Program-made: the position numbers and the translations under genes | Shown: positions 534 to 62,278 of the stretch, one piece after another | Layout: each line of letters opens with the position of its first letter | How positions within the stretch are numbered: position 1 is the stretch's first letter | The notes under the pieces: generated by a model | The model's input: only the letters and a program-made list of their open reading frames with translations | The model's database searches: none | What the model was told of the DNA's origin: nothing | DNA from: an uncultured virus (IMG/VR IMGVR_UViG_3300036766_000780) | Lineage: Duplodnaviria > Heunggongvirae > Uroviricota > Caudoviricetes | Virus record (IMG/VR): IMGVR_UViG_3300036766_000780 | DNA length: 64,000 bases | Reading direction: 5' to 3' (one strand)

Positions 534-3500
534 TTAATACCACAAAACACGTTTTTTCGTCTTGTTTTTGTCGTTTTCTCCAGCATTTTTGTCGCCAGGA
601 GCAAGTTCTTTAACTTTATTGATCATGATGCTTTTATTTGCTTCATCTGCTGTTTCTTTAACCGATCTTTTTACTTCTGTGCGATTTCCTGTAGATTGAG
701 TGAACATAATCTTACCTCCCTTATTGAAAAGATTTTGGAAAGGATACCTGATACTATCCATGATGTCGGATATACCATCGCTATCGTGAAACGGCATACC
801 TTCTATAACATCTCCCTTGGCATCCAGCTTCCATTTATATTCACCAAAGGCATCTATTATCATCTTATTTTCAGGCGTGTTTAAAACAAATAATCGTCTA
901 TTTCCATTAGAATCAACTATCCTTGATTGAACCGCTGTTATACCATCCACAACTACTTTAGTAAATTCAGGACACATAATCCCGTTTCTTTTTAAGGTTT
1001 TTATATAAGCCGGATAAGCTTGATCTACATACCATTTTTCTATTTTCCATTTATCATTTAGTTCCTTACAGGCTTTTACTATATCGTCTAGTTCTAGCTT
1101 ATTTTCTAAGAATGAGTCAACTATCCAGACCTCTCCGTTCGGTAAAAGAGCTAAAACCATCAAAGAAGTAAAATCGGTATAACCCCAATCTGCTCCGCCT
1201 ATAAACGTTATACCTAAATTTAATAGATAATTTCTTAGCACTTCAAAATTAGAAACTACTTGTTTTTCTCCTAATAATCTTTCTATAGCGGCATCTACGC
1301 TTAATACGTTTTTTAAATTATCAAATCTAGGATAAACTAAGCCGGAACTTGAAGGTTTTTTACACAAAAGCTGTGCGTTTGCCATGTCAATGGGTAATTG
1401 TTTAAAATTGTTACGAACGGCAGATAGAGGCTTATATAATGCAGTTTTACTGACTTTCGGTCTTCCCACTAGATAATGTCTCATTACGGGTAACATTGGG
1501 TGTTTAGCTATACCAGCATAAGCCTCAAACCTTTCGTAATCATTCTTATTTTCATGAGAAAGCTTGTTCCAATCTTCTTCGCTAATATTACTCATCGGAA
1601 GCTCTGGAGTAATATATCTTACAACTTTAGGCTCATCGACTTTTGCTGTTTCGTTACTTATGGGTTGAGTGATATCTATAATATTCCATCTTAATAATAT
1701 ACCTCCGGCATCTGCGGTTTGCCGTATTGTTTTTTCCATGAGTCCGCCAGCAAATTTTCTAGTAGACAAATAAACAGTAAGGGGAAAATATTGTTTATAC
1801 GTAGAGGGGATCATTTTCGCTTCATCTAATGCTTTAGGATTTTGAATCAAATCCAACTCGTCTACTACGAGTAGAGGGGTGTGATCTGAGTTATGAACTA
1901 GGATATTATTTGCAAAAAAAGATTTTAAATGCTCATCCTTAGTATCAATAGATATATCAAAAAGCTCTCTATACCCTAGATATATAATTTTTGAAACTTT
2001 TAAAGTAAGTTGATTTCTTATTTTTTTTGAATAATCTCTATATTTTTTTCTATTTTTCTCTATTTTAGAAATACTCCAATAAAATCCATTATGACTTGAA
2101 TTATCTTTTAACGTAGTTGCCTTAGCTGTATCTATGAATCTCCTAAATCTAATATGAGACAATGGCGTCCGTAGCTTATATATTAAACTTTTAACAAAAT
2201 ATGGTCTTAACATTTCACTAAAAAATCTAGAATCATTTTTTTCTATTCTAATTATTGGATATATTTTTTTGCTAGAATTGGTGGTTGAATATAGGTATGA
2301 CGATATATTAAATTCTTTCAATTTATTTATTATTAAATTATTTTCTTCTTCATTGAATGAACATGTTGCGATATCTAAATAGCCTTCTTTACAAATACCT
2401 ATTGTCTTATGATTTGCCATTCCATCATCCATTATGAAATATGCAAACCCCTCTATGTCCAATCTGTCCATCCATTCTTTAGTTACTTTTTTTCTGCCAT
2501 CTTTGTGTGTTATTTGTGATATATGTTTAAAAATAGGGTATGTTTTTGTTATTATTTTTTTTGTATAATATTTTTTATTCTTAAATACTTTATAATGAGT
2601 ATACTCTCTAAATTCTATATTATTTTTTTTAAAAATTTCTTTAATTTCATCTAAATATTCTGATTGATCGGGCGAATGTGTTACTTGATATCTTACACTA
2701 CCACTTGGCAATATATCTAAAGAGGCATCTCCTAACAATGTACCTAATATTACTTGTTTTAGGTTTCTTTCATATTTAATTTCTTTTCCACATACTTTTG
2801 TTTCTATAGAAATATCGCCCTTGGGTATCGTTAAGGTTCCTATTTTTAATTGATCGGCAGTTATCCATCCTCTATTAGTAAATATCTGATGATCTGTACT
2901 ACAAATCAAATTACTACCGTCTTCAAAATATATTTCTATAGTAGGCTTTATAGTGGGTCCTACAAATTTTATACTTTGATAAATTCTTGTGTTATTTCTA
3001 TAATCATGAGTAAGAATTTTATCTTCTAATGATACTTCACATATTTTTTTATCTCCATTTTTAGTAGTTACTATTGTATTACGATCTAAACAATTAGTTC
3101 CTTGCATGGTAGCTACTAATAATTTTAAATATATATTTTCATTGTCAGGGGTAATCCATTCTATTTTTCTTTTATTATCCGATACCTTTTGCCATCCATT
3201 TTTTTCTAAATAAAATTTTATTTTCTTAAAAAAAGTATTAACATAGCTAATTGCTTTTTCACTCTGAGAAAGGATAGAAGAAAGATGACATATTGATATT
3301 TTAAAATGAATCATAGTTAAAACTTCTATGATTGCTGCGCTCAAGGTTTTAAATGAATCTCTGGAGGACAGCATCGTTACTTGGGGAATGTCTGCGCTTT
3401 TTCCCGTCTTAATTAAATTATATATCTCCCACATAGCTTCTACGGGAGAACTATTAGATTCTGGATAAACGTGCCCCATAGGCATATCCATGTCTAGATA

Positions 3501-3593
3501 TAGATATATCCATTCCTTTAATTCTTCGGCAGAATTTAAAGGAGCTAAAATAGTATCTATCTTAATTTTTTCAATTTCTTCGTTACTTATCAT
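534..3593 (-). CDS. terL: Terminase large subunit, interrupted by an intein
   Basis: Walker A-like SSRDSFKT, Walker B LLVVDELD, RNase H-like nuclease motifs GADWGYTD and DIMDSIRY. Confidence 0.9.
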   Translation of the reverse strand: MISNEEIEKIKIDTILAPLNSAEELKEWIYLYLDMDMPMGHVYPESNSSPVEAMWEIYNLIKTGKSADIPQVTMLSSRDSFKTLSAAIIEVLTMIHFKISICHLSSILSQSEKAISYVNTFFKKIKFYLEKNGWQKVSDNKRKIEWITPDNENIYLKLLVATMQGTNCLDRNTIVTTKNGDKKICEVSLEDKILTHDYRNNTRIYQSIKFVGPTIKPTIEIYFEDGSNLICSTDHQIFTNRGWITADQLKIGTLTIPKGDISIETKVCGKEIKYERNLKQVILGTLLGDASLDILPSGSVRYQVTHSPDQSEYLDEIKEIFKKNNIEFREYTHYKVFKNKKYYTKKIITKTYPIFKHISQITHKDGRKKVTKEWMDRLDIEGFAYFIMDDGMANHKTIGICKEGYLDIATCSFNEEENNLIINKLKEFNISSYLYSTTNSSKKIYPIIRIEKNDSRFFSEMLRPYFVKSLIYKLRTPLSHIRFRRFIDTAKATTLKDNSSHNGFYWSISKIEKNRKKYRDYSKKIRNQLTLKVSKIIYLGYRELFDISIDTKDEHLKSFFANNILVHNSDHTPLLVVDELDLIQNPKALDEAKMIPSTYKQYFPLTVYLSTRKFAGGLMEKTIRQTADAGGILLRWNIIDITQPISNETAKVDEPKVVRYITPELPMSNISEEDWNKLSHENKNDYERFEAYAGIAKHPMLPVMRHYLVGRPKVSKTALYKPLSAVRNNFKQLPIDMANAQLLCKKPSSSGLVYPRFDNLKNVLSVDAAIERLLGEKQVVSNFEVLRNYLLNLGITFIGGADWGYTDFTSLMVLALLPNGEVWIVDSFLENKLELDDIVKACKELNDKWKIEKWYVDQAYPAYIKTLKRNGIMCPEFTKVVVDGITAVQSRIVDSNGNRRLFVLNTPENKMIIDAFGEYKWKLDAKGDVIEGMPFHDSDGISDIMDSIRYPFQNLFNKGGKIMFTQSTGNRTEVKRSVKETADEANKSIMINKVKELAPGDKNAGENDKNKTKKRVLWY
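1890..3092 (-). mobile_element. Intein (401 aa) with LAGLIDADG endonuclease in TerL
   Basis: GTN|CLDRNT start, STDH block B, ILVHN|S end; LAGLIDADG-like VILGTLLGDASL and FAYFIMDDG. Confidence 0.92.
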
Positions 3594-4116: not shown

Positions 4117-5874
4117 TTATTGGCGTAAATTAGCCTCATTAATTAAATCTTCTGCGTTATCTAAACTTCTATTAAAGTTAATCTCATCTCTAGTATCTTG
4201 TATTTCTAATGCATTATTTCTAAAAAATACGACCATTCCACCCAATGTTCCCATTACAGAGGATATAGAGATCGCATTACTTAATGCTTGTTTGATAGCC
4301 AGGGTAGCATCAAATAATCCTAATTCTTCAGCATCACCGTATACGTGATTTTCTACATCATAAACTATAGATTCATCGTTTGCTAATTTATTCTGTATCA
4401 CATTTATATCTTCTAGATTATACCCTGCATTTTGTAATAACTTATGAAAAGGAGCTATTAAAGAAGGAGAGACAACTTTTTCAAATATGTAACAATCTGG
4501 ACTATTTAAAATCATGTTTATAAGAACCCTGCATCCTCCAGGAAGACATCCATGAGAAATAGCGGCTCTAACCGCACAAACAGCATCTTCAGCTCTATCA
4601 GAGCTTTCTTTAAGTTCTCCGTTAGAAGATCCATATATCTTTAATTGTGCTATACCGCTAGTAAGTTTACCTAGCCTTTCTTCTAATAAGATTTTCTCTA
4701 TCTTGGATTCGGATTGTTCTATTTGTTTCTTAATAGTGTCTGCTCTTAACTCAATATTAATGGACTCTGATTCTCCGACTAAAGTAGTTCTAAATCTATA
4801 TAATTCTATCTTTTCCATATTTTTACCAAAATCCTTCTCGGTAAACTCAGACAGAGAATTGTTCATGTCGAAAACCTTAGCTCCCGTAAACGCAGAGATA
4901 TCCATGAGAAAGTTTGTCTGAGAGTTAATTATCTGACTTATAGGAGTTCTTAAGGGAACTATATTTATAGTGCCAGGATTAGGAAAGTTAAAAGCTAACG
5001 TAGTTAAGACTTGATCAGAAAAACCATGGGCAACTAGGACTACGTTTTTAAACTCAGAATTACCTTCCACATAAGCCCTACCTATTGATTGTAGAATATC
5101 ATTCACCTGAACCATGTCGTTTACGGCTCCATCAAATAATATAAACAAGGGCTTATCTAATATACATCTTTGATTAGCTTGATCATTTATAAACGCCGGG
5201 TGAAATTTACCTATAGACTCTTCATACCCTCTTTCAATAGGGAACCCCTCTACTAGGTTAACGCCGAACGTTCCCCCCTTACCGGATAGTTCTTGTATGG
5301 TTACGTGAGAAGAACTAGAAAAGCCAGTTAACTCAAAAGCTTCCATAACAGCCCTAGCCATTTTTTTATCACCATTTGCTGAAATGGTAGCTACTTTTTC
5401 TAACAAATATCTATTTTTATTTTTAACAGCAATTGAGCTTTTTTCAATATATGGAATCATAAAATCGTTTAAATGACCGTTTATGATCCTAACAACTCTT
5501 TGAGGGCTTTCTTTTGGATTTTCTTTGCAAAATTTAAGAAGATTCTTTGTTAACTCAGCGGCTATAATAGTAGCCGTAGTGGTTCCATCTCCAGCTTCGT
5601 TAACCGTTCTTACCGCTACGTCTCTTGTCTGTTCTGTTATAAGGTGTTTATAGGCATTTTCATATCCTAAAGCCCTAAAGATGGTAACTCCGTCTTTAGT
5701 GTTTTTATTAGGGATTTCTGGAAGATCTGATTCTATGATGATGTTCCTACCGCCAGGACCAAGAGAATGTCCTACGATTGATGAGATTTCGTCTAAAGTT
5801 TCTACAACTATCTTTTGTATCTTATTGATATCACTCAAAAACATCTTGGCTGGGGTTTTGACTTTTCTGCTCAT
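4117..5874 (-). CDS. groEL: Phage chaperonin (GroEL/Cpn60 family)
   Basis: SLGPGGRN, TKDGVT, AGDGTTTAT and LPGG motifs. Confidence 0.93.
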   Translation of the reverse strand: MSRKVKTPAKMFLSDINKIQKIVVETLDEISSIVGHSLGPGGRNIIIESDLPEIPNKNTKDGVTIFRALGYENAYKHLITEQTRDVAVRTVNEAGDGTTTATIIAAELTKNLLKFCKENPKESPQRVVRIINGHLNDFMIPYIEKSSIAVKNKNRYLLEKVATISANGDKKMARAVMEAFELTGFSSSSHVTIQELSGKGGTFGVNLVEGFPIERGYEESIGKFHPAFINDQANQRCILDKPLFILFDGAVNDMVQVNDILQSIGRAYVEGNSEFKNVVLVAHGFSDQVLTTLAFNFPNPGTINIVPLRTPISQIINSQTNFLMDISAFTGAKVFDMNNSLSEFTEKDFGKNMEKIELYRFRTTLVGESESINIELRADTIKKQIEQSESKIEKILLEERLGKLTSGIAQLKIYGSSNGELKESSDRAEDAVCAVRAAISHGCLPGGCRVLINMILNSPDCYIFEKVVSPSLIAPFHKLLQNAGYNLEDINVIQNKLANDESIVYDVENHVYGDAEELGLFDATLAIKQALSNAISISSVMGTLGGMVVFFRNNALEIQDTRDEINFNRSLDNAEDLINEANLRQ

Positions 5875-8507: not shown

Positions 8508-10175
8508 TTAAGAGCCATAAGAAACATTAACCAAGTCCTTCTGCCAAACTTTTTTACCACAATCCCAAATACGCTCATATCCTATAGATTTCGCCATTTC
8601 GTTTTCAGTATTACCTATAGCTCCTTTTCTAGCTAAGTCAGCTTTTTTACATGCTTGTTTTTGAATTCTACGTTGGATAGGTCCTTCTTGATAAACATAA
8701 GAGTAGTCTTGTCTATATTCATTTATTAACGTAAATCCTAACTTTTTATATACATTTCCTTGGCTCCAACGGTTATCTGACCAAGATACTATCTTATCAA
8801 ATCCACAGCTTTTTGCCGATATCTCTAAGGCTTTTAATAATCTAGAGGCTCCTCCTACTATATTATATCCGTCTTTAAAGGCAAGTCTATTTAATATTAA
8901 AGTTTTTCGTTCATCGTTGATTCTATGGTGCTTACTTCCTGTCATTACAGCTACCAATTCATTGTTATAATATAAGCCAAAAGACATGACATGTTTAGCC
9001 TTTCCTTGAATATGATTTTCATTTAAAAAATTTTTAGCGATATCTGGATCTTGTATGGCTCTTACTTCACATTTTCTGGCATATATAGTATGTTCATTTT
9101 TCTTTAAAACTGATTTTAAAAAATTTTTAATTTGGTTCTGTCTGTCTCTCCATTCATCTTCAAATATAGTTATAAGTCTAATTCCATTTTCTTCTGCCAT
9201 TCTCATCTTATCAATATGAGATCTTTGACCTCCGCCAGCTCTATGTAAATTAGATTCTTTATGCCAATATAATCCACAATATTCAATTCCTAGATTTAAT
9301 TCTGGTATATAAATATCAATCTCCTTTCCTTTTGTTTTTCCCTTGAACCTATATCTTTCAGATTTAAAGCCTAAAGAATCTATCCAATCTTTTATAGCTA
9401 TTTCTGTTTTTGAAATTCCTATGTTATTGCATGTAGGGCAATCTTGTGCAAAAAAGTTAGAAAATCTATTTATTCTTTCTTTTCCACATTTTTTACAGAC
9501 AGCTTTTAGAGAGTGTCTCTTTATAGAATAGCTTTCTTTTATTAATGTATATCCTAATTTATCTAATTTATCCTCTATTTCTTTTAGAGATACTATAGAT
9601 CCACATTTATTCTTAGGATTTCCCTGATATAATTTAGATGAAATTTTATAATAAAAAGAACCGTCTTCTGCTTCTATTTTATATTTACCGTTCTCGAATC
9701 CTACTATCTTGCCAGAGCCATCAGGGATTCTAGATTGAGCTGATTCTAAACTTAATGTTTTATCTATTAATGCAGCTTCTTGGTGTGTTCTTAAGACACT
9801 TTCTAATCCCTTTTGAATAAGAAATTCTTTTGAATTGCCTGCATGTAATCCTAGTTCCTTGCATATATGTTTTAAAATTATTTTTGTATTGTTTTTATAT
9901 GCTTCTTCGCTTATTTCTATTAGTTTATCATATTTGTTTGTATTTTCTTTTGTTTTCCATTTATTTAAAATAATTCCATTTCTATTACAGAAATTAGTAA
10001 TAACCCCTCTAGACATAATCCATGTTTTATTAATTTCTTTTGTAATCTCTATTAAAGTATATCCCTCTTTAGACATTCTCTCAATAATTTTTATTACGTC
10101 TTCATTTAATTTAGTTATATTTGGCATAACATTTCTCCTTAAGGACACTATACCACGGAATAAGCGATAAGTCAA
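8508..10175 (-). CDS. Hef-like free-standing homing endonuclease (Zn ribbon, PD-(D/E)xK, C-terminal GNAT-like domain)
   Basis: CxxC pairs; EIDIYIPELNLGIEYCGLYWH; NHIQG...GGASRLL...SDNRWS..GNVYKKLGF; probable start MPNIT behind AGGAG. Confidence 0.78.
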   Translation of the reverse strand: MTYRLFRGIVSLRRNVMPNITKLNEDVIKIIERMSKEGYTLIEITKEINKTWIMSRGVITNFCNRNGIILNKWKTKENTNKYDKLIEISEEAYKNNTKIILKHICKELGLHAGNSKEFLIQKGLESVLRTHQEAALIDKTLSLESAQSRIPDGSGKIVGFENGKYKIEAEDGSFYYKISSKLYQGNPKNKCGSIVSLKEIEDKLDKLGYTLIKESYSIKRHSLKAVCKKCGKERINRFSNFFAQDCPTCNNIGISKTEIAIKDWIDSLGFKSERYRFKGKTKGKEIDIYIPELNLGIEYCGLYWHKESNLHRAGGGQRSHIDKMRMAEENGIRLITIFEDEWRDRQNQIKNFLKSVLKKNEHTIYARKCEVRAIQDPDIAKNFLNENHIQGKAKHVMSFGLYYNNELVAVMTGSKHHRINDERKTLILNRLAFKDGYNIVGGASRLLKALEISAKSCGFDKIVSWSDNRWSQGNVYKKLGFTLINEYRQDYSYVYQEGPIQRRIQKQACKKADLARKGAIGNTENEMAKSIGYERIWDCGKKVWQKDLVNVSYGS

Positions 10176-10335: not shown

Positions 10336-11718
10336 TTAAAGTTGACCAGAAATTCCTTCTAAAAGTACGTTCTTTCTTGGTTGCTTAACAGCCAAGCAAA
10401 GGAAACGAAAGTGCGCTTCCGGCAAACTTAGGTCACTTATCGCGAGCTTTAGCTTACTATATGCACTAAGCTGTCTTAAATCCATTGTGTTCCCTTGGAT
10501 TAAGTAACCAGTTACAGATCCTGGGGTTCTATTCCCAAGGTCTACGAAACTAGCACCAGCGCCATTATCTTTTACTCTTCCAATGAATTTAGCACTTGGT
10601 CCAGATCCACCGATTTCTGAACGATATACGTTGTAGTATCTAGCACCAGAAACAGCAGAGATAACCAAGGTAATAGCATCACCAGCAGAAGCAGTTTCAC
10701 TAGCAGCGGCAGAAGCAAGAGATTCGCCTCTTTCATTAGCTGAAGTTACATAATAAGCATAAGCTCCTGCATCTAAAACAGAAGCAGCATTAGCACCAGC
10801 AGAGTGTGTGAAAGTTGGAGCAGAAGGAGATCCAGCTCTAGATCTAGCTGGACGTGTTTTTCCAGACAAGAAACGAGAAGGTTCAATGGCAACCAATGCA
10901 CTTGAAGTCCATTGAGTTCTTAAATTAGCTCCTGAAGCTTCTTGAGCTGAACCAGCAAGCATAATACGCTCTTTTGCGTGAGCGATTTTGTTATATTGAC
11001 TTAAACTGATAGGATCTAATAGAAGTTTATCAGCAGATCCATGATTCATTGCTGATTTTACAGCAGCATCTTCGATTGAAGATTGAGTCATAGTTCCATC
11101 AACTGAAACGATGATTGATTGGTCAGAACCATATTCAGCAAACATAAGATCTTGAGTGTTACTTTGAGCATCAGATTCTCTAATCTGAGCATCAGCTCCT
11201 CTCATGTTAGGCATACTAGCAGCAGCAAGTGGGTTTCCATCGAAAACACCTGCGTTTGAATAGTCTGCTTGTCCACGGAAAGAGTCAAACTCGATGTCAG
11301 CAGCAAGTTTCATAGCAGCATCGTTTGATGCTCTATCTTCTGCTTTAACACCATCAAATGCTCCGATCATGTTAGCAGCAACTGTTACTCGTCTCATTGT
11401 TGAATAATAAGACATCGGAACAACTGCTCTGATATAGTTAGAAGTATCTTCTTCGCCGATTCCACCCTCACTTTGAGCAGATCCACCGAAAATACCGTAG
11501 TCTAACTGACGGTTAAATTGAACTAAGGTAGACTTAGCGTCTTGAACCTTTAGCATTTTTTGTAGTTTAATGTGTGAGTCGTCGAAAGTAACAACTTCCA
11601 TGATAGGAGATAGATCTTCTATCTGTAAAGCTGAACCTTGGACTAGAGTGCTTGGAGAAGCGTCGTATCGACCCGCTTCCAATGCTTTTAATAGATCACT
11701 TAATTGATTCTCGATCAT
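10336..11718 (-). CDS. Major capsid protein with an inserted Ig/FN3-like domain
   Basis: N-terminus LLKALEAG..SPSTLVQGSALQIEDL resembles SPO1/A511-type capsid arms; biased codon use; follows the scaffold gene and precedes a terminator. Confidence 0.85.
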   Translation of the reverse strand: MIENQLSDLLKALEAGRYDASPSTLVQGSALQIEDLSPIMEVVTFDDSHIKLQKMLKVQDAKSTLVQFNRQLDYGIFGGSAQSEGGIGEEDTSNYIRAVVPMSYYSTMRRVTVAANMIGAFDGVKAEDRASNDAAMKLAADIEFDSFRGQADYSNAGVFDGNPLAAASMPNMRGADAQIRESDAQSNTQDLMFAEYGSDQSIIVSVDGTMTQSSIEDAAVKSAMNHGSADKLLLDPISLSQYNKIAHAKERIMLAGSAQEASGANLRTQWTSSALVAIEPSRFLSGKTRPARSRAGSPSAPTFTHSAGANAASVLDAGAYAYYVTSANERGESLASAAASETASAGDAITLVISAVSGARYYNVYRSEIGGSGPSAKFIGRVKDNGAGASFVDLGNRTPGSVTGYLIQGNTMDLRQLSAYSKLKLAISDLSLPEAHFRFLCLAVKQPRKNVLLEGISGQL

Positions 11719-15759: not shown

Positions 15760-16607
15760 GCCGGACCTAAAACCTCTACCTTTCTACATCTAATTTTTGC
15801 AATATTTTTCTTATAAATAACCATATCTTTTGAATGAACTAGACATTTTAAAACCTTTCCTACGTTAAAAGATAACGCTATCTCGGGCGAATGACACAAA
15901 TGTAATCCACCCCCACATTCTCTATTTTTATTACTATCAAAATCATTACAAGTAACTATGTTTTCGTATTTCACTTTTCCTGTATGGAAATCACATAAAG
16001 TTTCAGGATTAACTGATTTGTAAAGAATATATCTACCATCAGAATTTTTTTCACATAAACTTAAAAAATCTTTTTTAGAATAGTTTAATTCTTTACCTAT
16101 GTGGTTCAGTACATTGCTTGTTTTTGATTTACTCTTTATTTTAATCTTTACTCTTAAGCTAACTGTAGAAAATCCTAAAAGCTTTAATATAACAAAAGTA
16201 GAAAAAACAATAATAAAAGAATAATCAAAAGCCACAACCCTTGAGTTTCCCCGAGCCGCAACACTTGAGTTTCCATAAGCCACAACCCTTGAGTTTTCCC
16301 GAGCCGCAACACTTGAGTTTCCATAAGCCACAACCCTTGAGTTTTCCCGAGCCACAACCCTTGAGTTTTCCCGAGCCACAACCCTTGAGTTTCCATAAGC
16401 CACAACTCTTGAGTTTCCATAAGCCACAACCCTTGAGTTTCCATAAGCCACAACCCTTGAGTTTTCCCGAGCCACAACCCTTGAGTTTCCATAAGCCTTA
16501 TTTATATGAATTGTATGCTCAGATCTAATTTCAATTAAAGTGAATTCTTTAAAGGAATCTGGCAAAGAATCTAAATCTTTTTGAGTTCTTACGATTATAT
16601 TTTTCAT
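15756..16607 (-). CDS. Octapeptide-repeat (beta-helix-like) phage protein
   Basis: About 11 (G/E)NSxVxA(Y/R) repeats plus a C-terminal CGGGLH domain. Confidence 0.75.
   Translation of the reverse strand: MKNIIVRTQKDLDSLPDSFKEFTLIEIRSEHTIHINKAYGNSRVVARENSRVVAYGNSRVVAYGNSRVVAYGNSRVVARENSRVVARENSRVVAYGNSSVAARENSRVVAYGNSSVAARGNSRVVAFDYSFIIVFSTFVILKLLGFSTVSLRVKIKIKSKSKTSNVLNHIGKELNYSKKDFLSLCEKNSDGRYILYKSVNPETLCDFHTGKVKYENIVTCNDFDSNKNRECGGGLHLCHSPEIALSFNVGKVLKCLVHSKDMVIYKKNIAKIRCRKVEVLGPA
16229..16497 (-). repeat. 24-bp coding tandem repeat
   Basis: GCCACAACCCTTGAGTTT(C/T)CC units encoding 8-aa repeats. Confidence 0.9.
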
Positions 16608-57283: not shown

Positions 57284-58335
57284 TGTTTGATAACGACGAT
57301 TATAATCCAATACTGCCTTCTTCTTTGTTAGCCTTCGATCATGACGGAGTTACAGATGCTTATAAGAACTCTAAGTCTAATTTTTCCTTAAAAACCGGAA
57401 TAGTTATAAAGAGTTACGATACTAATGATCCACAAAACGTATCTGGTGTTGCGGTTGAGTATGACGTTTTAACTATTGATCAGAGTAAGGATCATGGAAC
57501 ATCAGGTGTTATTTACAAGAAATGTCTTTCTGTTGATGGCTTTGGCGGACTCTCCGACTTTATGGAAGCAAAACTAAGACCTGCGTCTGATAAGAAAGTC
57601 ATAAAAGACGCAGAAATAGGCAATAGTGATGGCGCAATAGTTATGCTTCTATGTATCAACGGAATAGAGGATAGAGGCGTTATAATAGGCTCACTAAAGC
57701 ATCCAGGCAGAAAAACAAGATTAGATAAGGAAGCTGGACTTCACCTTGAGGGAGAGTATAACGGCTTAAATTGGAAGATAGACAAAGATGGTGCGTTAGC
57801 GGTTACTTTTAGATCTGCTACAGATTCTAAGGGTAAGGCTTCTGATGAGAAATCGGGTGGATCTAATTTTAAGATAGAGAAAGACGGATCTATAGAATTA
57901 AACGATAATAACAAAGAAAAGATAAGAATTGATAAAACTAATAAAACAGTTACTATAAATGCTGAGAAAGATATATCAAACACTACAGAGGGTAACTTTA
58001 ACGTAACTGCTAAACAATCAACGAATGTAACGACTACAAAAGATATATTAATGGCAGCATCAGGTAATTGTAAACTTACTAGTCAGGGAGATTTTACTGT
58101 TGAAGCACAGGCGTCAGGCAACTTAAAAGCTAGTTCTTGGAACATTAAGGCTGATGATTTTATTGAAGCCAGAGCTGGAAGTATTAGATTAAGTTCATCT
58201 CAAGTAATGGTCGGACAAGGTGGAACACCAGCGGTTATAAACTCAACGCAAGTTCTTACGTTTGTTCCTCCTGGAATTCCTTCTATTGGGATTATGATTG
58301 GACCTTTTAGCGGATCTGTTTTTATTGCGAATTAA
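57283..58335 (+). CDS. Baseplate spike (gpV/gp5-like)
   Basis: OB-fold-like N-terminus (VMLLCING...GVIIG) followed by beta-helix repeats. Confidence 0.72.
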   Translation: MFDNDDYNPILPSSLLAFDHDGVTDAYKNSKSNFSLKTGIVIKSYDTNDPQNVSGVAVEYDVLTIDQSKDHGTSGVIYKKCLSVDGFGGLSDFMEAKLRPASDKKVIKDAEIGNSDGAIVMLLCINGIEDRGVIIGSLKHPGRKTRLDKEAGLHLEGEYNGLNWKIDKDGALAVTFRSATDSKGKASDEKSGGSNFKIEKDGSIELNDNNKEKIRIDKTNKTVTINAEKDISNTTEGNFNVTAKQSTNVTTTKDILMAASGNCKLTSQGDFTVEAQASGNLKASSWNIKADDFIEARAGSIRLSSSQVMVGQGGTPAVINSTQVLTFVPPGIPSIGIMIGPFSGSVFIAN

Positions 58336-58628
58336 TCTATCATCATAATTTGAATAAATTATTTTTGAATAAATTATTAAAGAAAAATATAAAACCGTTA
58401 TTATAATGAATCTTAAATAAATATGACCGTTATTTAAAAAATCAGTAGAAGTAATAATATAAATTATAGAAATAAATAAAGAACTTATTAATCCTATAGC
58501 AATAAATATCATTAATCTTTCTTTAAATGCATCTGTTAATGTTTTAAAGTTCATAATTAATACCCATATATCAATTTTCTGCCATAATAAATAAAACACA
58601 TGACTGATCCAATATGGAACGTTTCCCA

Positions 58629-58819
58629 ATACTCTACTTTACAAGACCTCACACTACCGCACCTCTACGTTACTATACCTTACCTCACAATACCTATACT
58701 TGACGTTACCTCACATTACCTATACTTTACCTCACAATACCTATACTTGACGTTACCTCACATTACCTATACTTTACCTCACAATACCTATACTTTACTA
58801 TACGTCACAGTACCCTACC
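58629..58819 (-). ncRNA. Pentamer array of 37 NGT-NN units; candidate VIPR-like guide RNA
   Basis: Every unit has an invariant GT (16 GGT, 9 AGT, 8 TGT, 4 CGT); 31 units of 5 nt and 6 of 6 nt; begins 1 nt after the stop of a RAMP-like fragment. Confidence 0.7.
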
Positions 58820-58820
58820 A

Positions 58821-59013
58821 TTACTCAGTTAAAATGTAAGTAAAAGTTCCATATCCAGCGTTTCTCCATTGACCTAATCCTTTAAGTTGTCCGTAAGAAA
58901 GTAAAGATTCTAAAACCTCCCTAGTTAAGGGTGAATTTTTCATAACCATCAAGTTAAAAGATAAGACGCTTCCAGCAGGAACGACTTCAGATCTAGCTAA
59001 ACTAACCCGTGGC
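58821..59013 (-). pseudogene. C-terminal fragment of a solitary Cas7/RAMP-like protein
   Basis: PRVSLARSEVVPAG...LLSYGQLKGLGQWRNAGYGTF with a RAMP-type G-rich loop; in-frame TAG upstream at 59052-59054. Confidence 0.75.
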
Positions 59014-59051
59014 TTTGCAATCGGGGCATTCCGTTGGTTTGGTAAACATGG

Positions 59052-59183
59052 CTACCCTCCAAATTCGCTGTAATGCTCCTCTCGGGATGCTCCGCAACGC
59101 AAGCATGTGACCCTTAACCCAAACAGCGTCGATGTTTTCTGGGTCTTCCCGTGCCCAAACAGCCAACAAATTAGTTTTTTCAT
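59052..59183 (-). CDS. Small Zn-binding prophage-type protein (DUF1660-like, 43 aa)
   Basis: MKKLICWLFGH...CLRCG from hand translation. Confidence 0.6.
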   Translation of the reverse strand: MKKLICWLFGHGKTQKTSTLFGLRVTCLRCGASREEHYSEFGG

Positions 59184-59186
59184 GTC

Positions 59187-59459
59187 TCAGTCCTTTAGTG
59201 AGAACTTATGCCCACGAAGTTCAACATCAAGGGGTCCGAGGTCTGTGTAGCCCTGCCAGCCGCATTTCACACAGCAGTACCCATCGGCGTCGTTACAGTC
59301 GCCGTTGCGTTCCTTCTCGGTGGTGTCGCCGCACTCAGGGCACTCAAACTTTCCAGCCATGACCTCAATGAGCGCCTTGGAATAGGCTTCCGCCTCGCTA
59401 TCTTTACCTCTGAGCACCAAATCAATTACATGCTCTGTGGTGGTATTTGCCTTTCTCAT
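59187..59459 (-). CDS. Small Zn-ribbon protein in the GC-richer insert
   Basis: CPECG...CVKCG; AGGAGG RBS. Confidence 0.65.
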   Translation of the reverse strand: MRKANTTTEHVIDLVLRGKDSEAEAYSKALIEVMAGKFECPECGDTTEKERNGDCNDADGYCCVKCGWQGYTDLGPLDVELRGHKFSLKD

Positions 59460-59559
59460 AATCGGTGTCCTCCTACTAATACTTTACCAAAACCATCAAA
59501 TATTGCAAGATCTAAATGACTCACAAAGTCACAGATATGTAACTATTGATGTTTTTGAA

Positions 59560-59661
59560 CTATGTTCTTGAATTAGGCGCAACGTGGTGGGGCAGGTTGA
59601 AAGAGTTAGTTCCAAGCACGTCTCTGGTCATTGTTAAAGTTACTTTGTAGTTTTTCATCAT
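59560..59661 (-). pseudogene. N-terminal fragment of the same Cas7/RAMP-like gene
   Basis: MMKNYKVTLTMTRDVLGTN, then runs into foreign sequence and stops at 33 aa; AGGAG RBS. Confidence 0.6.
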
Positions 59662-59682
59662 AAAATTCTCCTTGTTAAGATC

Positions 59683-59711
59683 ATTATACCACATATTAAA
59701 ATAAAAGTCAA
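59683..59711 (-). promoter_or_regulatory. Sigma70 promoter of the RAMP/array locus
   Basis: TTGACT, 17 nt, TATAAT with an extended TG. Confidence 0.8.
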
Positions 59712-59874
59712 ATAAAGTGGGCTTTCCACCCACATCGCTGGTTTGTCGGCTCTATAAACGTAGCCGCACCGTCTTTTAAGCTGTTTTACAGCACCATTAC
59801 TGGCAAGTTTCCACAGACTATTGGTTACATGGCATGACATAGAGAATTGGTGTGATAACCTTAGCCATGTAACC

Positions 59875-60228
59875 TCATTTTATGTATTCACTTATTCCAA
59901 CTAATCTACCATAACACCTAGTTGAGCATAATGGATAATTACCAGCAAATTGAACGTCTTCCTCTTTCATTTCCTTACCACACTCTTCACAATAAACAAT
60001 ACCATCAAATTCTACATATTCACCAGTAATTCCTCCTGAAGGAAACTGTTTAGCTGTTGGATCAATTATATCACCATTTTTATTAACTGTCCACCAATGC
60101 CCTTGTTCACCCCAAAAAGGACAATAATAAAATCCTCTAACAAGTCTTAAGGTAGGATCATTCTTAACAAGTTCTTCGCTCATTTCCTTACACTTGCCAC
60201 GATATTTCATATAGTTAGATTGAGTCAT
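59875..60228 (-). CDS. Papain/transglutaminase-like protein with a C-terminal Zn finger
   Basis: GKC...GHWW...IDPT triad-like pattern; CEEC...CSTRC. Confidence 0.6.
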   Translation of the reverse strand: MTQSNYMKYRGKCKEMSEELVKNDPTLRLVRGFYYCPFWGEQGHWWTVNKNGDIIDPTAKQFPSGGITGEYVEFDGIVYCEECGKEMKEEDVQFAGNYPLCSTRCYGRLVGISEYIK

Positions 60229-60230
60229 AG

Positions 60231-60425
60231 TTAATTCTTCTCTAAAGCTTTTTCTAATGTTTTCATAGCTTCGTTCACACCATACAGGGACTCATGAAGA
60301 TTCTTTATAACTAGATGATGATTGCTACTTTGGTTTACTCTTAAGATCCTAGCATAAACATCCATAAGTTCTTTAAGTTCTTCTTTGTCTTTTTCCTTTT
60401 CTTTGTCCGTTAAGTGTAGACTCAT
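60231..60425 (-). CDS. Hypothetical protein
   Basis: ORF track; operon spacing. Confidence 0.55.
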   Translation of the reverse strand: MSLHLTDKEKEKDKEELKELMDVYARILRVNQSSNHHLVIKNLHESLYGVNEAMKTLEKALEKN

Positions 60426-60832
60426 TTTATTTCCATATATCTATATTGTGTGGTTCTAGCATAATATTTGTCGTCTTTTTGAAAGAATGAATTTTGTGAG
60501 CTAAAATAATTATTAACACTCCAGCCCGGCTCAGCAGCCAATGAAGCATACTTTAAAGCATCTATTATTCGTTGTTCGCCATAGTTAGATTTTGGCATTT
60601 CAAACACTAACTCTTTTTGCTCTTTAATCTTACCAACATTATCTAATCCTCTTATTTCAAATTCTATTGGTATGCAGGCTTGACCTGTGATTGCCCTAGT
60701 GAAATCTTCTAAAGATAAACTAAGTTCTAAAAATTTGATATCAGAATTTTCATCTTGTATTTCAATATTCATTCTAGAAACGCCATAACAGATAGGTTTG
60801 CTTATTGAAATATTTCCCTCAAGTTTTTTCAT
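60422..60832 (-). CDS. Hypothetical phage protein
   Basis: ORF track; AGGAG RBS. Confidence 0.65.
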   Translation of the reverse strand: MKKLEGNISISKPICYGVSRMNIEIQDENSDIKFLELSLSLEDFTRAITGQACIPIEFEIRGLDNVGKIKEQKELVFEMPKSNYGEQRIIDALKYASLAAEPGWSVNNYFSSQNSFFQKDDKYYARTTQYRYMEIK

Positions 60833-60842
60833 AACATTTCTC

Positions 60843-61565
60843 CTAGTTACAGTTAATTGTTCTTTTAGAAACGATAGTGTTATTGTTAACTAATATAGCA
60901 CCTGAGTAAACAGTTATAGTAAACTTAATATTACCAGAACTTACTAATTGCAGTCTAATATCTGTTCTTCTAGATCCAGTTAGCAATGTACCGCCATTAT
61001 CTAATAGATTCTGAGCTGCTGTATATGTATAATTTCTAGGGTTTAAGATCACATCGCCATTTTGCACCAATAAATCTACATCTGTGATAGATAGATGGGT
61101 TGTTAAAGAATTATCATAGTTGTTAACAGAAGTAAGGAACTGTCCAGAACTGTCAAAGCTAACTCTCCCAGCGTGATCAACTAATAACTCAACCTGACCG
61201 CCGTTATCACATCGCCAGAATCCTTCCAGGCTTTGTGGAACTTCTACCGTAGTCGGTACATTTACATATTGAACGTCTGTTTTGTTACAAGCCATAAGAA
61301 ACACCGCTAAGAACAATATAATCAATTTCATCAATTTCATCAATTTCATATATTCTCCTATTGTGTTTTGTCTTTTTTTAGACAAAACAAGTCCGTTATC
61401 TTTGATAAATGATAGTAATTCATCGGAAAAATCTTCTGATACATATATTTCGCCTTGATATCCAGCGGTAATTAAGTCATAATCGTTTTCAAGACCAAAT
61501 ATACCTTGAGATCTATCTTTCATAAACTCATCAATTATTTTTAGAAATTTTTCTTCAGCAGTCAT
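60843..61565 (-). CDS. ORF containing an internal lipoprotein gene (start 61349)
   Basis: Internal AGGAG followed by MKLMKLMKLIILFLAVFLMAC lipobox. Confidence 0.6.
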   Translation of the reverse strand: MTAEEKFLKIIDEFMKDRSQGIFGLENDYDLITAGYQGEIYVSEDFSDELLSFIKDNGLVLSKKRQNTIGEYMKLMKLMKLIILFLAVFLMACNKTDVQYVNVPTTVEVPQSLEGFWRCDNGGQVELLVDHAGRVSFDSSGQFLTSVNNYDNSLTTHLSITDVDLLVQNGDVILNPRNYTYTAAQNLLDNGGTLLTGSRRTDIRLQLVSSGNIKFTITVYSGAILVNNNTIVSKRTINCN

Positions 61566-62017: not shown

Positions 62018-62110
62018 ATTTGCTCCTCGTTTAAATCAGTATATCATATCCAGAAATAATGTCAACTTCAACAAAATGTGTTTAATAATGGTATCGCAAC
62101 ACGTTTTAAT

Positions 62111-62170
62111 AAGTCCATATTTGGCACTTTAACGTATAAAAAGTCCATATTTGGCACTTTAACGTATAAA
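62111..62170. repeat. Perfect 30-bp tandem duplication
   Basis: AAGTCCATATTTGGCACTTTAACGTATAAA twice. Confidence 0.95.
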
Positions 62171-62278
62171 AAGACCTTATTCTTCAATGTGAACCTAGAA
62201 GTAACTTGGCACGTTACCTATGCTTATTATGTAGTTGAGTTGACGATAATGTCAATTCAGATGCTTAATGAATTCATG

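Follow-up and report, generated by a model that had tools for sequence, protein, structure and literature searches.

The window analysed here, a 64,000-nucleotide (nt) stretch of an uncultured virus of the Caudoviricetes (IMG/VR record IMGVR_UViG_3300036766_000780), carries on its minus strand a tract of pentameric repeats that is a guide array of the VIPR (Viral Interference Programmable Repeat) type, placed directly behind a gene for a Cas7-like RAMP, Vipr, of which the two ends are left and the centre is exchanged for foreign DNA. VIPR systems, first described in 2026, combine a lone ancestral RAMP (Vipr) with guide RNAs (vrRNAs) made of GGY/NN pentamers and occur mostly in phages; in that description, the NN bases read the target, every third target base is skipped, and seven types are distinguished (bioRxiv 10.64898/2026.04.26.720920). 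Nearly all the experiments concern a single clade, the type II system of Escherichia phage SUSP1. The present locus is read, at somewhat better than even confidence, as the remnant of a VIPR cassette in which the array is a recent and functionless relic.

The tract is identified as a VIPR array on account of its form, strand and position and of the arrays that accompany homologous genes. Specifically, minus-strand GT anchors run from 58824 to 58632, with spacings of 5 nt (31 times) and 6 nt (7 times), giving 38 anchors and 37 units, one of which holds a single additional internal GT. The array starts 1 nt past the stop codon of the upstream frame, on the same strand as the gene, and ends at 58628. 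Counting bore out the original prediction, made from the letters of the window before the present analysis, that 58629-58819 holds 37 units with an invariant GT, six of them 6 nt long. The six read GTATAG five times and GTAGAG once, and a seventh 6-nt unit overlaps the stop codon. In the 5-nt units, the G and the T are invariant (30/30) and the three positions that follow are variable (A19/C3/G8/T0, A19/C2/G3/T6 and A9/C4/G9/T8, respectively). The units fall into successive blocks of 6, 4, 5, 4, 5, 6 and 7, and six of the seven blocks close with a 6-nt unit in which the extra base is G. A chain search found no second GT chain on either strand of the window, and the longest chain arising by chance was of 6 units, both when the window was simulated 100 times with a first-order Markov model and when the tract was shuffled 1000 times.

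The exact 47-nt higher-order repeat reported for the tract was recovered as well: 58681-58727 is identical to 58728-58774, and the self-match at an offset of 47 remains exact over 69 nt, reaching 58795. The periods of 21, 26 and 47 listed by Tandem Repeats Finder (TRF) are the lengths of two alternating blocks and of their sum. The small hairpin proposed at the end of the tract stood in part, as the terminal palindrome is present (58627..58616) and its predicted fold is no better than that of shuffled sequences (z +0.81; 159 of 200 shuffles fold as well). Moreover, a 13-nt inverted repeat brackets the array, its pair folding no better than shuffles (whole-region z -0.37), and may well be due to chance. 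A candidate array-like similarity to the left of the foreign cassette was rejected as chance, the best local alignment scoring 20 against up to 29 for shuffles. No Rfam family was matched in 57500-61000 at E up to 5, a single tRNA being the only match of the whole window, and the TRF listing of the 64 kb contains no array resembling CRISPR repeats and spacers.

Homology searches with a 59-residue C-terminal piece of the truncated gene retrieved 71 proteins of 111-302 residues, the intact ones measuring 195-280 residues and modelling as Cas7/Csm3-like RAMPs. For a near homologue, P0002, the AlphaFold model built from the 71-sequence alignment (mean pLDDT 90.3) matched Csm3, type VII Cas7 and Cmr4 in Foldseek, with a best E of 4.5e-7, and in an all-against-representatives scan (VIA) the top 20 rows were all CRISPR RAMPs; its superposition gives a Z of 10.3 with type VII Cas7, at a root-mean-square deviation of 2.7 over 134 residues, and of 10.0 with Csm3. 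By sequence, the family profile matches the glycine-rich loops (G-loops) of Csm4 and Cas7 with E values from 2e-5 to 8e-4. No cas family was detected among 28 open reading frames (ORFs) of the window against PHROGs and 8 against Pfam, so that, as far as the models indicate, the family is that of a lone RAMP encoded outside a CRISPR-Cas locus. The family is large and viral, and 55 loci were counted in species-representative prokaryote genomes, in metagenome-assembled genomes of many phyla. The locus had no blastn match among 50,697 phage records, and tblastn of P0002 returned four unannotated faecal phage records and no cultured phage.

Arrays downstream of these genes were sought in 84 related viral loci, namely the best 80 of the 542 IMG/VR stretches encoding relatives (587 matched) and four loci from a first scan, with the requirement of at least 20 period-5 G anchors on the strand of the gene, starting at most 900 nt downstream, and with Markov sequences as controls. 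Such an array was found in 78 of the 84 loci and in 0 of the 84 controls. The loci without it are L013, L017, L018, L021, L029 and L037; in L017, the array sits upstream of the gene, and L021 has just 121 nt of downstream DNA. With a stricter G-Y anchor over at least 12 units, 26 of the 84 loci pass, against 0 of 84 controls. The three closest relatives (L007-L009; 47-59% identity) have GY arrays of 49 to ~190 units directly past the stop codon. Across the family, just one G is fixed; the base after it is for the most part T or C in the sub-branch closest to the window, and C or A in a sub-branch from the gut. Hence the second base of the clade is not a pyrimidine in every case: in L006 (3150-3700), the G is followed by A in 75% of the units, and in the gut-type loci L030, L041 and L084 by A or C. 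A 6-nt unit almost invariably ends in G (window, 7 of 7; L009, 25 of 26; L053, 18 of 19), and extra Gs split the arrays of relatives into blocks of ~6-8 units. Exact or near-exact tandem duplications of whole blocks are also visible in the arrays of intact relatives (L009 3620-3700, L073 2430-2600), and block duplication followed by divergence may be the route by which arrays without an adaptation module grow.

The same comparison bears on the reading of the tract as a translated low-complexity ORF, for which the plus-strand frame of 79 codons at 58600-58839, open across the tract, would be the candidate. That this frame is open follows from the scarcity of G on the plus strand, 9 in 191 bases, which makes two of the three stop codons rare; it has no Pfam match, a period of 5 nt with single 6-nt steps is incompatible with a conserved codon repeat, and the 78 relatives hold arrays of the same rhythm and unrelated letters at the same position. 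Coding is accordingly given next to no credence. The tract is of the VIPR type, as had been proposed, although not of a new variant: the NGT and 6-nt units had been taken as a variant, and the methods of the VIPR preprint name YNNNG repeats as an alternative format (10.64898/2026.04.26.720920), while its legends mention "staggered" arrays, each vrRNA beginning where the one before it ends (10.64898/2026.04.26.720920). GT-NNN units are YNNNG repeats, the contiguous G-punctuated layout fits the staggered arrays, and the relatives examined share the G-punctuated format.

The second half of the finding is the state of the gene. The array had been placed directly behind a RAMP-like gene; a remnant of vipr is there, and the whole gene is not. 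The minus-strand frame that ends at 58821 bears the glycine-rich loop of RAMPs, a short ORF at 59661 begins like a RAMP, and the frames between them are broken. The first of these comprises the last ~63 codons of the gene (59012..58824), with the final beta-strands and the G-loop (G-x-G-Q-W-R...G-Y-G-x-F), and is 54-68% identical to intact homologues, while the homology of the second is confined to 59661..59596, that is, residues 1 to ~24. In alignment with homologues, the window retains only residues 1-~24 and ~201-265 of a Vipr of ~265 residues, and ~177 central codons are gone; no intact vipr reading frame was found at the locus, its two stubs being separated by 583 bp of foreign DNA. Since the segment is about as long as the piece it replaces, the event was an exchange and not a simple insertion, and on alignment the centre of vipr is replaced by GC-rich foreign DNA. 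The GC content in sliding windows peaks at 0.51-0.54 (59050-59499), against ~0.30-0.38 in the flanks and ~0.33 in the phage. Three small zinc-ribbon ORFs lie in the segment, each preceded by a ribosome-binding site of its own, and the smallest of them was probably cut short at the right junction. The 90-residue ORF has only two homologues among 5.8 billion proteins searched, no relative in viral contigs and one weak zinc-ribbon match in metagenome contigs, and its neighbours in the Atlas are generic zinc-ribbons. The donor of the cassette was not found in viral contigs, metagenome contigs, proteins or the Atlas. Without the ~177 central codons, an RNA-guided complex cannot come from this locus alone, and the system at the locus is not intact.

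An exchange of this kind could in principle be produced by assembly, with the GC-rich insert as a chimera and the real phage carrying an intact vipr. The window is derived from a metagenome, and the module that contains the locus occurs in one sample only, the public run X1, a sediment metagenome in which alone the stretch was found and which is probably the source sample; none of the public runs listed as containing it is an RNA run. However, in the separate assembly of X1 by Logan, one contig of 3375 bp covers 58766-60300 with 0 differences and both junctions inside, at a depth of 12.9 compared with 11.9 for the flanking contig of 29.6 kb. Furthermore, the two stubs that flank the insert belong to a single gene and keep its order and orientation, which is unusual for chimeric joins. 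The Logan assembly breaks only inside the 47-nt repeat, where the depth is 25-32, as expected for ~2.5 copies. A chimeric origin is therefore regarded as very improbable.

The accessory module as a whole is absent from sister phages. In X2, a second sediment sample from another study, a sister phage without the module is represented by one contig in which 159 other bases connect 58328 with 59685, and the nearest viral record, G001 (55 kb), also lacks the module and has 159 unrelated bases at its place. In the same record (as locus L001, 1340-1500), a similar promoter-like site precedes the 159 unrelated bases. X2 also contains low-depth relatives (~88-95% identical) of the region of the 90-residue ORF alone, which is consistent with a distinct donor lineage living in a similar habitat. 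The module is positioned between two convergent transcription units.

With regard to expression, the predicted promoter lies 22 nt upstream of the start codon of the N-terminal stub and after the terminator of the upstream operon, with no terminator-like site predicted on the way from it to the array. With the promoter intact and no such site before the array, the array RNA may still be made, as the original prediction had suggested; transcription of the array probably continues, to judge from the match to the promoter consensus. Co-transcription with vipr is implied by the relatives, in which the array follows directly past the stop codon. In the intact state, a strong promoter would have driven the gene of a lone Cas7-like Vipr together with a guide array beginning 1 nt past its stop codon, written in 5-nt steps of a fixed G-Y and three variable bases and cut into short blocks by an extra G. 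By analogy with SUSP1, one Vipr protomer would occupy each 5-nt unit with the fixed bases flipped out, and the variable bases would be presented to double-stranded DNA in a gapped code, with the silencing of a rival element as the outcome. The 583-bp foreign piece would then have replaced the ~177 codons, and its zinc-ribbon ORFs would now use the vipr promoter, so that a single transcript would run from the N-terminal stub through the three cassette ORFs to the C-terminal stub and the array, the latter kept in perfect register as the 3' part of an mRNA with no cognate protein in cis. Transcription, the binding mode and the loss of function enter this scheme as inferred steps.

Table 1. Features of the VIPR remnant and its surroundings, with positions in the 64,000-nt window
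Feature	Position	Strand	Basis or remark
vrRNA-type array, 37-38 GT-NNN units in 7 blocks of 4-7 units	58628..58824	-	GT chain search
Tandem duplication of 47 nt within the array, in two exact copies + 21 nt	58680..58795	-	TRF, self-match
Downstream arm of a 13-nt inverted repeat, 92% complementary	58612..58624	-	Partner 58842-58854; the pair brackets the array; contains the terminal palindrome
C-terminal Vipr stub, including the stop codon	58821..59012	-	Profile E 6.5e-28, profile positions 142-201
Foreign replacement segment, 583 bp	59013..59595	-	In place of ~177 Vipr codons
Cassette ORF, 15 aa, CxxC motif	59002..59049	-	Read from the sequence
Cassette ORF, 43 aa, DUF1660-like	59052..59183	-	20.7 bits, below the cut-off of 21.4
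Cassette ORF, 90-aa small zinc-ribbon protein, AGGAGG ribosome-binding site	59187..59459	-	
N-terminal Vipr stub, 33-codon ORF ending in a stop	59563..59661	-	Profile E 0.0018, profile positions 2-23
Sigma-70-type promoter, TTGACT-17-TATAAT with TG extension	59683..59711	-	11/12 consensus matches; presumed vipr-array promoter
Intrinsic-terminator-like hairpin and T run, closing the upstream operon	59717..59733	-	Shared with G001, which lacks the module
Accessory module	58329..59684	.	159 unrelated bases in its place in G001 and X2
AT-rich ORF (GC ~0.20), 103 aa, two hydrophobic helices and a strongly basic tail	58243..58554	-	ATG at 58554

The reading of the array as a functionless relic is favoured because no Vipr is encoded at the locus to bind or protect the RNA or to present its bases. 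Several observations weigh against it. The array is free of decay, with the GT present in 37 of 37 units and the punctuating G in 7 of 7 6-nt units, and a perfect register fits very recent loss and continued selection equally well. Moreover, the window covers 64 kb of a phage of ~160 kb or more (the longest contig of X1 has 162,948 bases), and a second vipr elsewhere in the genome is possible. The link of the family to the SUSP1 Vipr is limited to the C-terminal 50 columns and is weak against PDB 36pp_D (E 0.54-0.66), and the junctions are supported by the same reads as the original assembly, which is support and not independent proof.

The main rival of the relic is a working solo guide array, the RNA of which would be loaded onto a Vipr in trans, coming from a rival phage in the same cell or from a different locus of this phage, and would redirect or misdirect it. 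There is published precedent, in that 346 vipr-null phages keep one or two solo vrRNAs after clean deletion of vipr-vap1 (10.64898/2026.10.15.759431) and the solo vrRNAs of satellites misdirect the helper's Vipr in the SUSP1 family (10.64898/2026.10.15.759431); the vipr-null phages and the decoy vrRNAs of the satellites, the well-kept GT register and G punctuation and the strong predicted promoter in front of the array all speak for this alternative. Against it stand the searches for a protein and for a target. As regards the protein, the 71-protein profile scores nothing beyond the two stubs in the window, and no Vipr was found in G001.

As regards the target, seven pairing rules were applied to the window and G001 (NN with 0-3 skipped bases, a 2-nt skip at the 6-nt units, contiguous NNN and a shifted register), three of them (1-nt skip, contiguous NNN and shifted register) were also used on the 84 related loci, and single blocks were scanned separately under the 1-nt-skip and contiguous-NNN rules. 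No target rose above the shuffled-unit controls in the window, in G001, in the 84 loci or with single blocks, no gapped search having been made across the whole collection. A degenerate-peptide scan of the 71 Vipr proteins likewise gave nothing above shuffled controls, and no guide is held in common with 306 arrays (10,357 units) of relatives. The blocks are A-rich and have only 8-14 informative bases under the published rule, and the local target searches are for this reason low in power; the same blocks, being short (4-7 units against ~6-8 in relatives), A-rich and partly duplicated, would offer little information to a solo array. Overall, a working array acting in trans is judged a serious possibility, yet clearly the less probable one. 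A particular form of it, in which the tract would be a retained weapon or decoy, that is, a solo G-punctuated array of a VIPR clade other than that of SUSP1 that borrows the Vipr of a rival, and in which the cassette would have taken over the vipr promoter, perhaps as a disarming step in phage-phage conflict, is considered rather unlikely.

The genomic surroundings of the locus are those of a large sediment myovirus, with a tail sheath, a major head protein, a GroEL-like chaperonin, homing endonucleases and one tRNA. The locus is encoded by a virus, as indicated by the tail sheath, the major head protein, the homing endonucleases and the absence of the module from the sister genomes. Within the module, the 103-residue ORF runs with its 3' end into the end of the convergent tail/baseplate gene; it is without a match in Pfam or PHROGs and is not recognisable as a vap; no Pfam or PHROG match of the neighbouring ORFs suggests DNA binding or a nuclease. 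On the other side, the minus-strand region 59717-59875 is 98% conserved in G001 and contains an 11-bp perfect hairpin (59823-59833 / 59864-59874) directly after the stop codon of the upstream gene, followed by the intrinsic terminator; this region has no Rfam match and may represent either a pair of terminators or a small structured RNA.

Further features were observed elsewhere in the window. The GroEL-like chaperonin is encoded at 4117-5874 (minus strand; PHROG 5725, E 1e-83). Signatures of selfish elements occur at three minus-strand sites, namely an ORF of 1019 residues with an intein-like LAGLIDADG homing-endonuclease domain in mid-protein (534-3593), an HNH/homing endonuclease of 555 residues (8508-10175) and the major-head-protein ORF, the family match of which falls in two separate stretches (10336-11718). 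A tandem repeat of 24 nt in 11.2 copies (16229-16497, 84% matches) lies in a minus-strand ORF of 283 residues with weak RIIB-like PHROG matches and is probably an 8-residue protein repeat, and a direct repeat of 30 nt in 2.5 copies (62107-62181, 93% matches) lies in an intergenic or small-ORF region.

The locus represents, in a damaged copy, a kind of system that has already been published, and what is particular to it is the manner in which the protein gene was lost. It provides a natural example from the large and uncharacterised GY-NNN clade: an exchange of the core for foreign genes destroyed the protein gene, and the array is intact. The loss of vipr with retention of the guides would thus not be confined to the SUSP1 family and could occur by replacement and not just by deletion. 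The clade also offers a hypothesis for the change of guide format, as all 84 relatives have Q in place of the D that reads G1 and almost all have single-G punctuation.

With the backbone of class 1 CRISPR effectors (Cas7/Csm3/Cmr4), the locus shares the fold of the intact homologues and the sequence of the G-loop; unlike class 1 CRISPR, it has no repeat-spacer array in the window and no cas match among the ORFs scanned, and it has a period of 5 and not 6 nt and a viral context.

The comparison with the type II system of SUSP1 was made on the genome KT454805 (90.7 kb), which encodes Vipr (ALH47069.1), vap1 and four vrRNAs. The family profile matched one ORF of this genome, the Vipr gene (E 0.0045), downstream of which lie tailed GGY-NN guides. 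The alignment of the family profile with the SUSP1 Vipr in hhalign (probability 77.6%, E 1.9e-5, over the last 50 columns only) pairs G-x-G-D-W-R of SUSP1 with G-x-G-Q-W-R of the family of the window. In SUSP1, D177 and H17 read G1, W178 and R138 hold G2, and R179 holds Y3, according to the structural report (10.64898/2026.04.26.720927), and D177-W178-R179 align on Q-W-R of the family. The G-x-G-Q-W motif is present in 83 of the 84 loci, and the remaining one, L005, reads F-L-Q-W-R, so that the Q, set against the D177 that reads the first G in SUSP1, occurs in all of them. The loss of the G1-reading aspartate alongside that of the fixed G1 is suggestive at the level of sequence, as a comparison of one clade with one clade and not as a demonstrated cause, and the change from D to Q in the G-loop may have converted the code from GGY-NN to GY-NNN, in which a third base is free. 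The two systems are alike in the aligned G-loop and in 5-nt units with G and then Y at unit positions 2 and 3, and some units of SUSP1 also begin with T or A instead of G. They differ in that GG is fixed in SUSP1 and a single G in the window, and in that the SUSP1 guides, as described, are separate RNAs of ~100 nt, each with a conserved pseudoknot tail, whereas the tract of the window is contiguous and no tail was found in it. Moreover, SUSP1 has vap1, of which no homologue was recognised here, the vap families themselves not having been compared.

The phages with solo vrRNAs, as described in that report, resemble the present one in having kept guide RNA genes after the loss of a working vipr. 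In those phages, the deletion is clean and leaves one or two tailed guides with predicted targets. Here, conversely, the core of the gene is exchanged for foreign ORFs, both ends of the gene are kept together with a punctuated tract of 37 units, and no target was predicted for the array in the scans described above.

The closest counterpart is found in the YNNNG and staggered systems of the VIPR preprint. Unlike these, the locus of the window has a vipr gene reduced to two stubs and shorter blocks, of 4-7 units. Like them, it has neither a CRISPR array nor cas genes nearby, its blocks are contiguous and tail-less, and it combines a lone viral Cas7-like RAMP family with adjoining same-strand units of 5 nt in which a G-Y is fixed.

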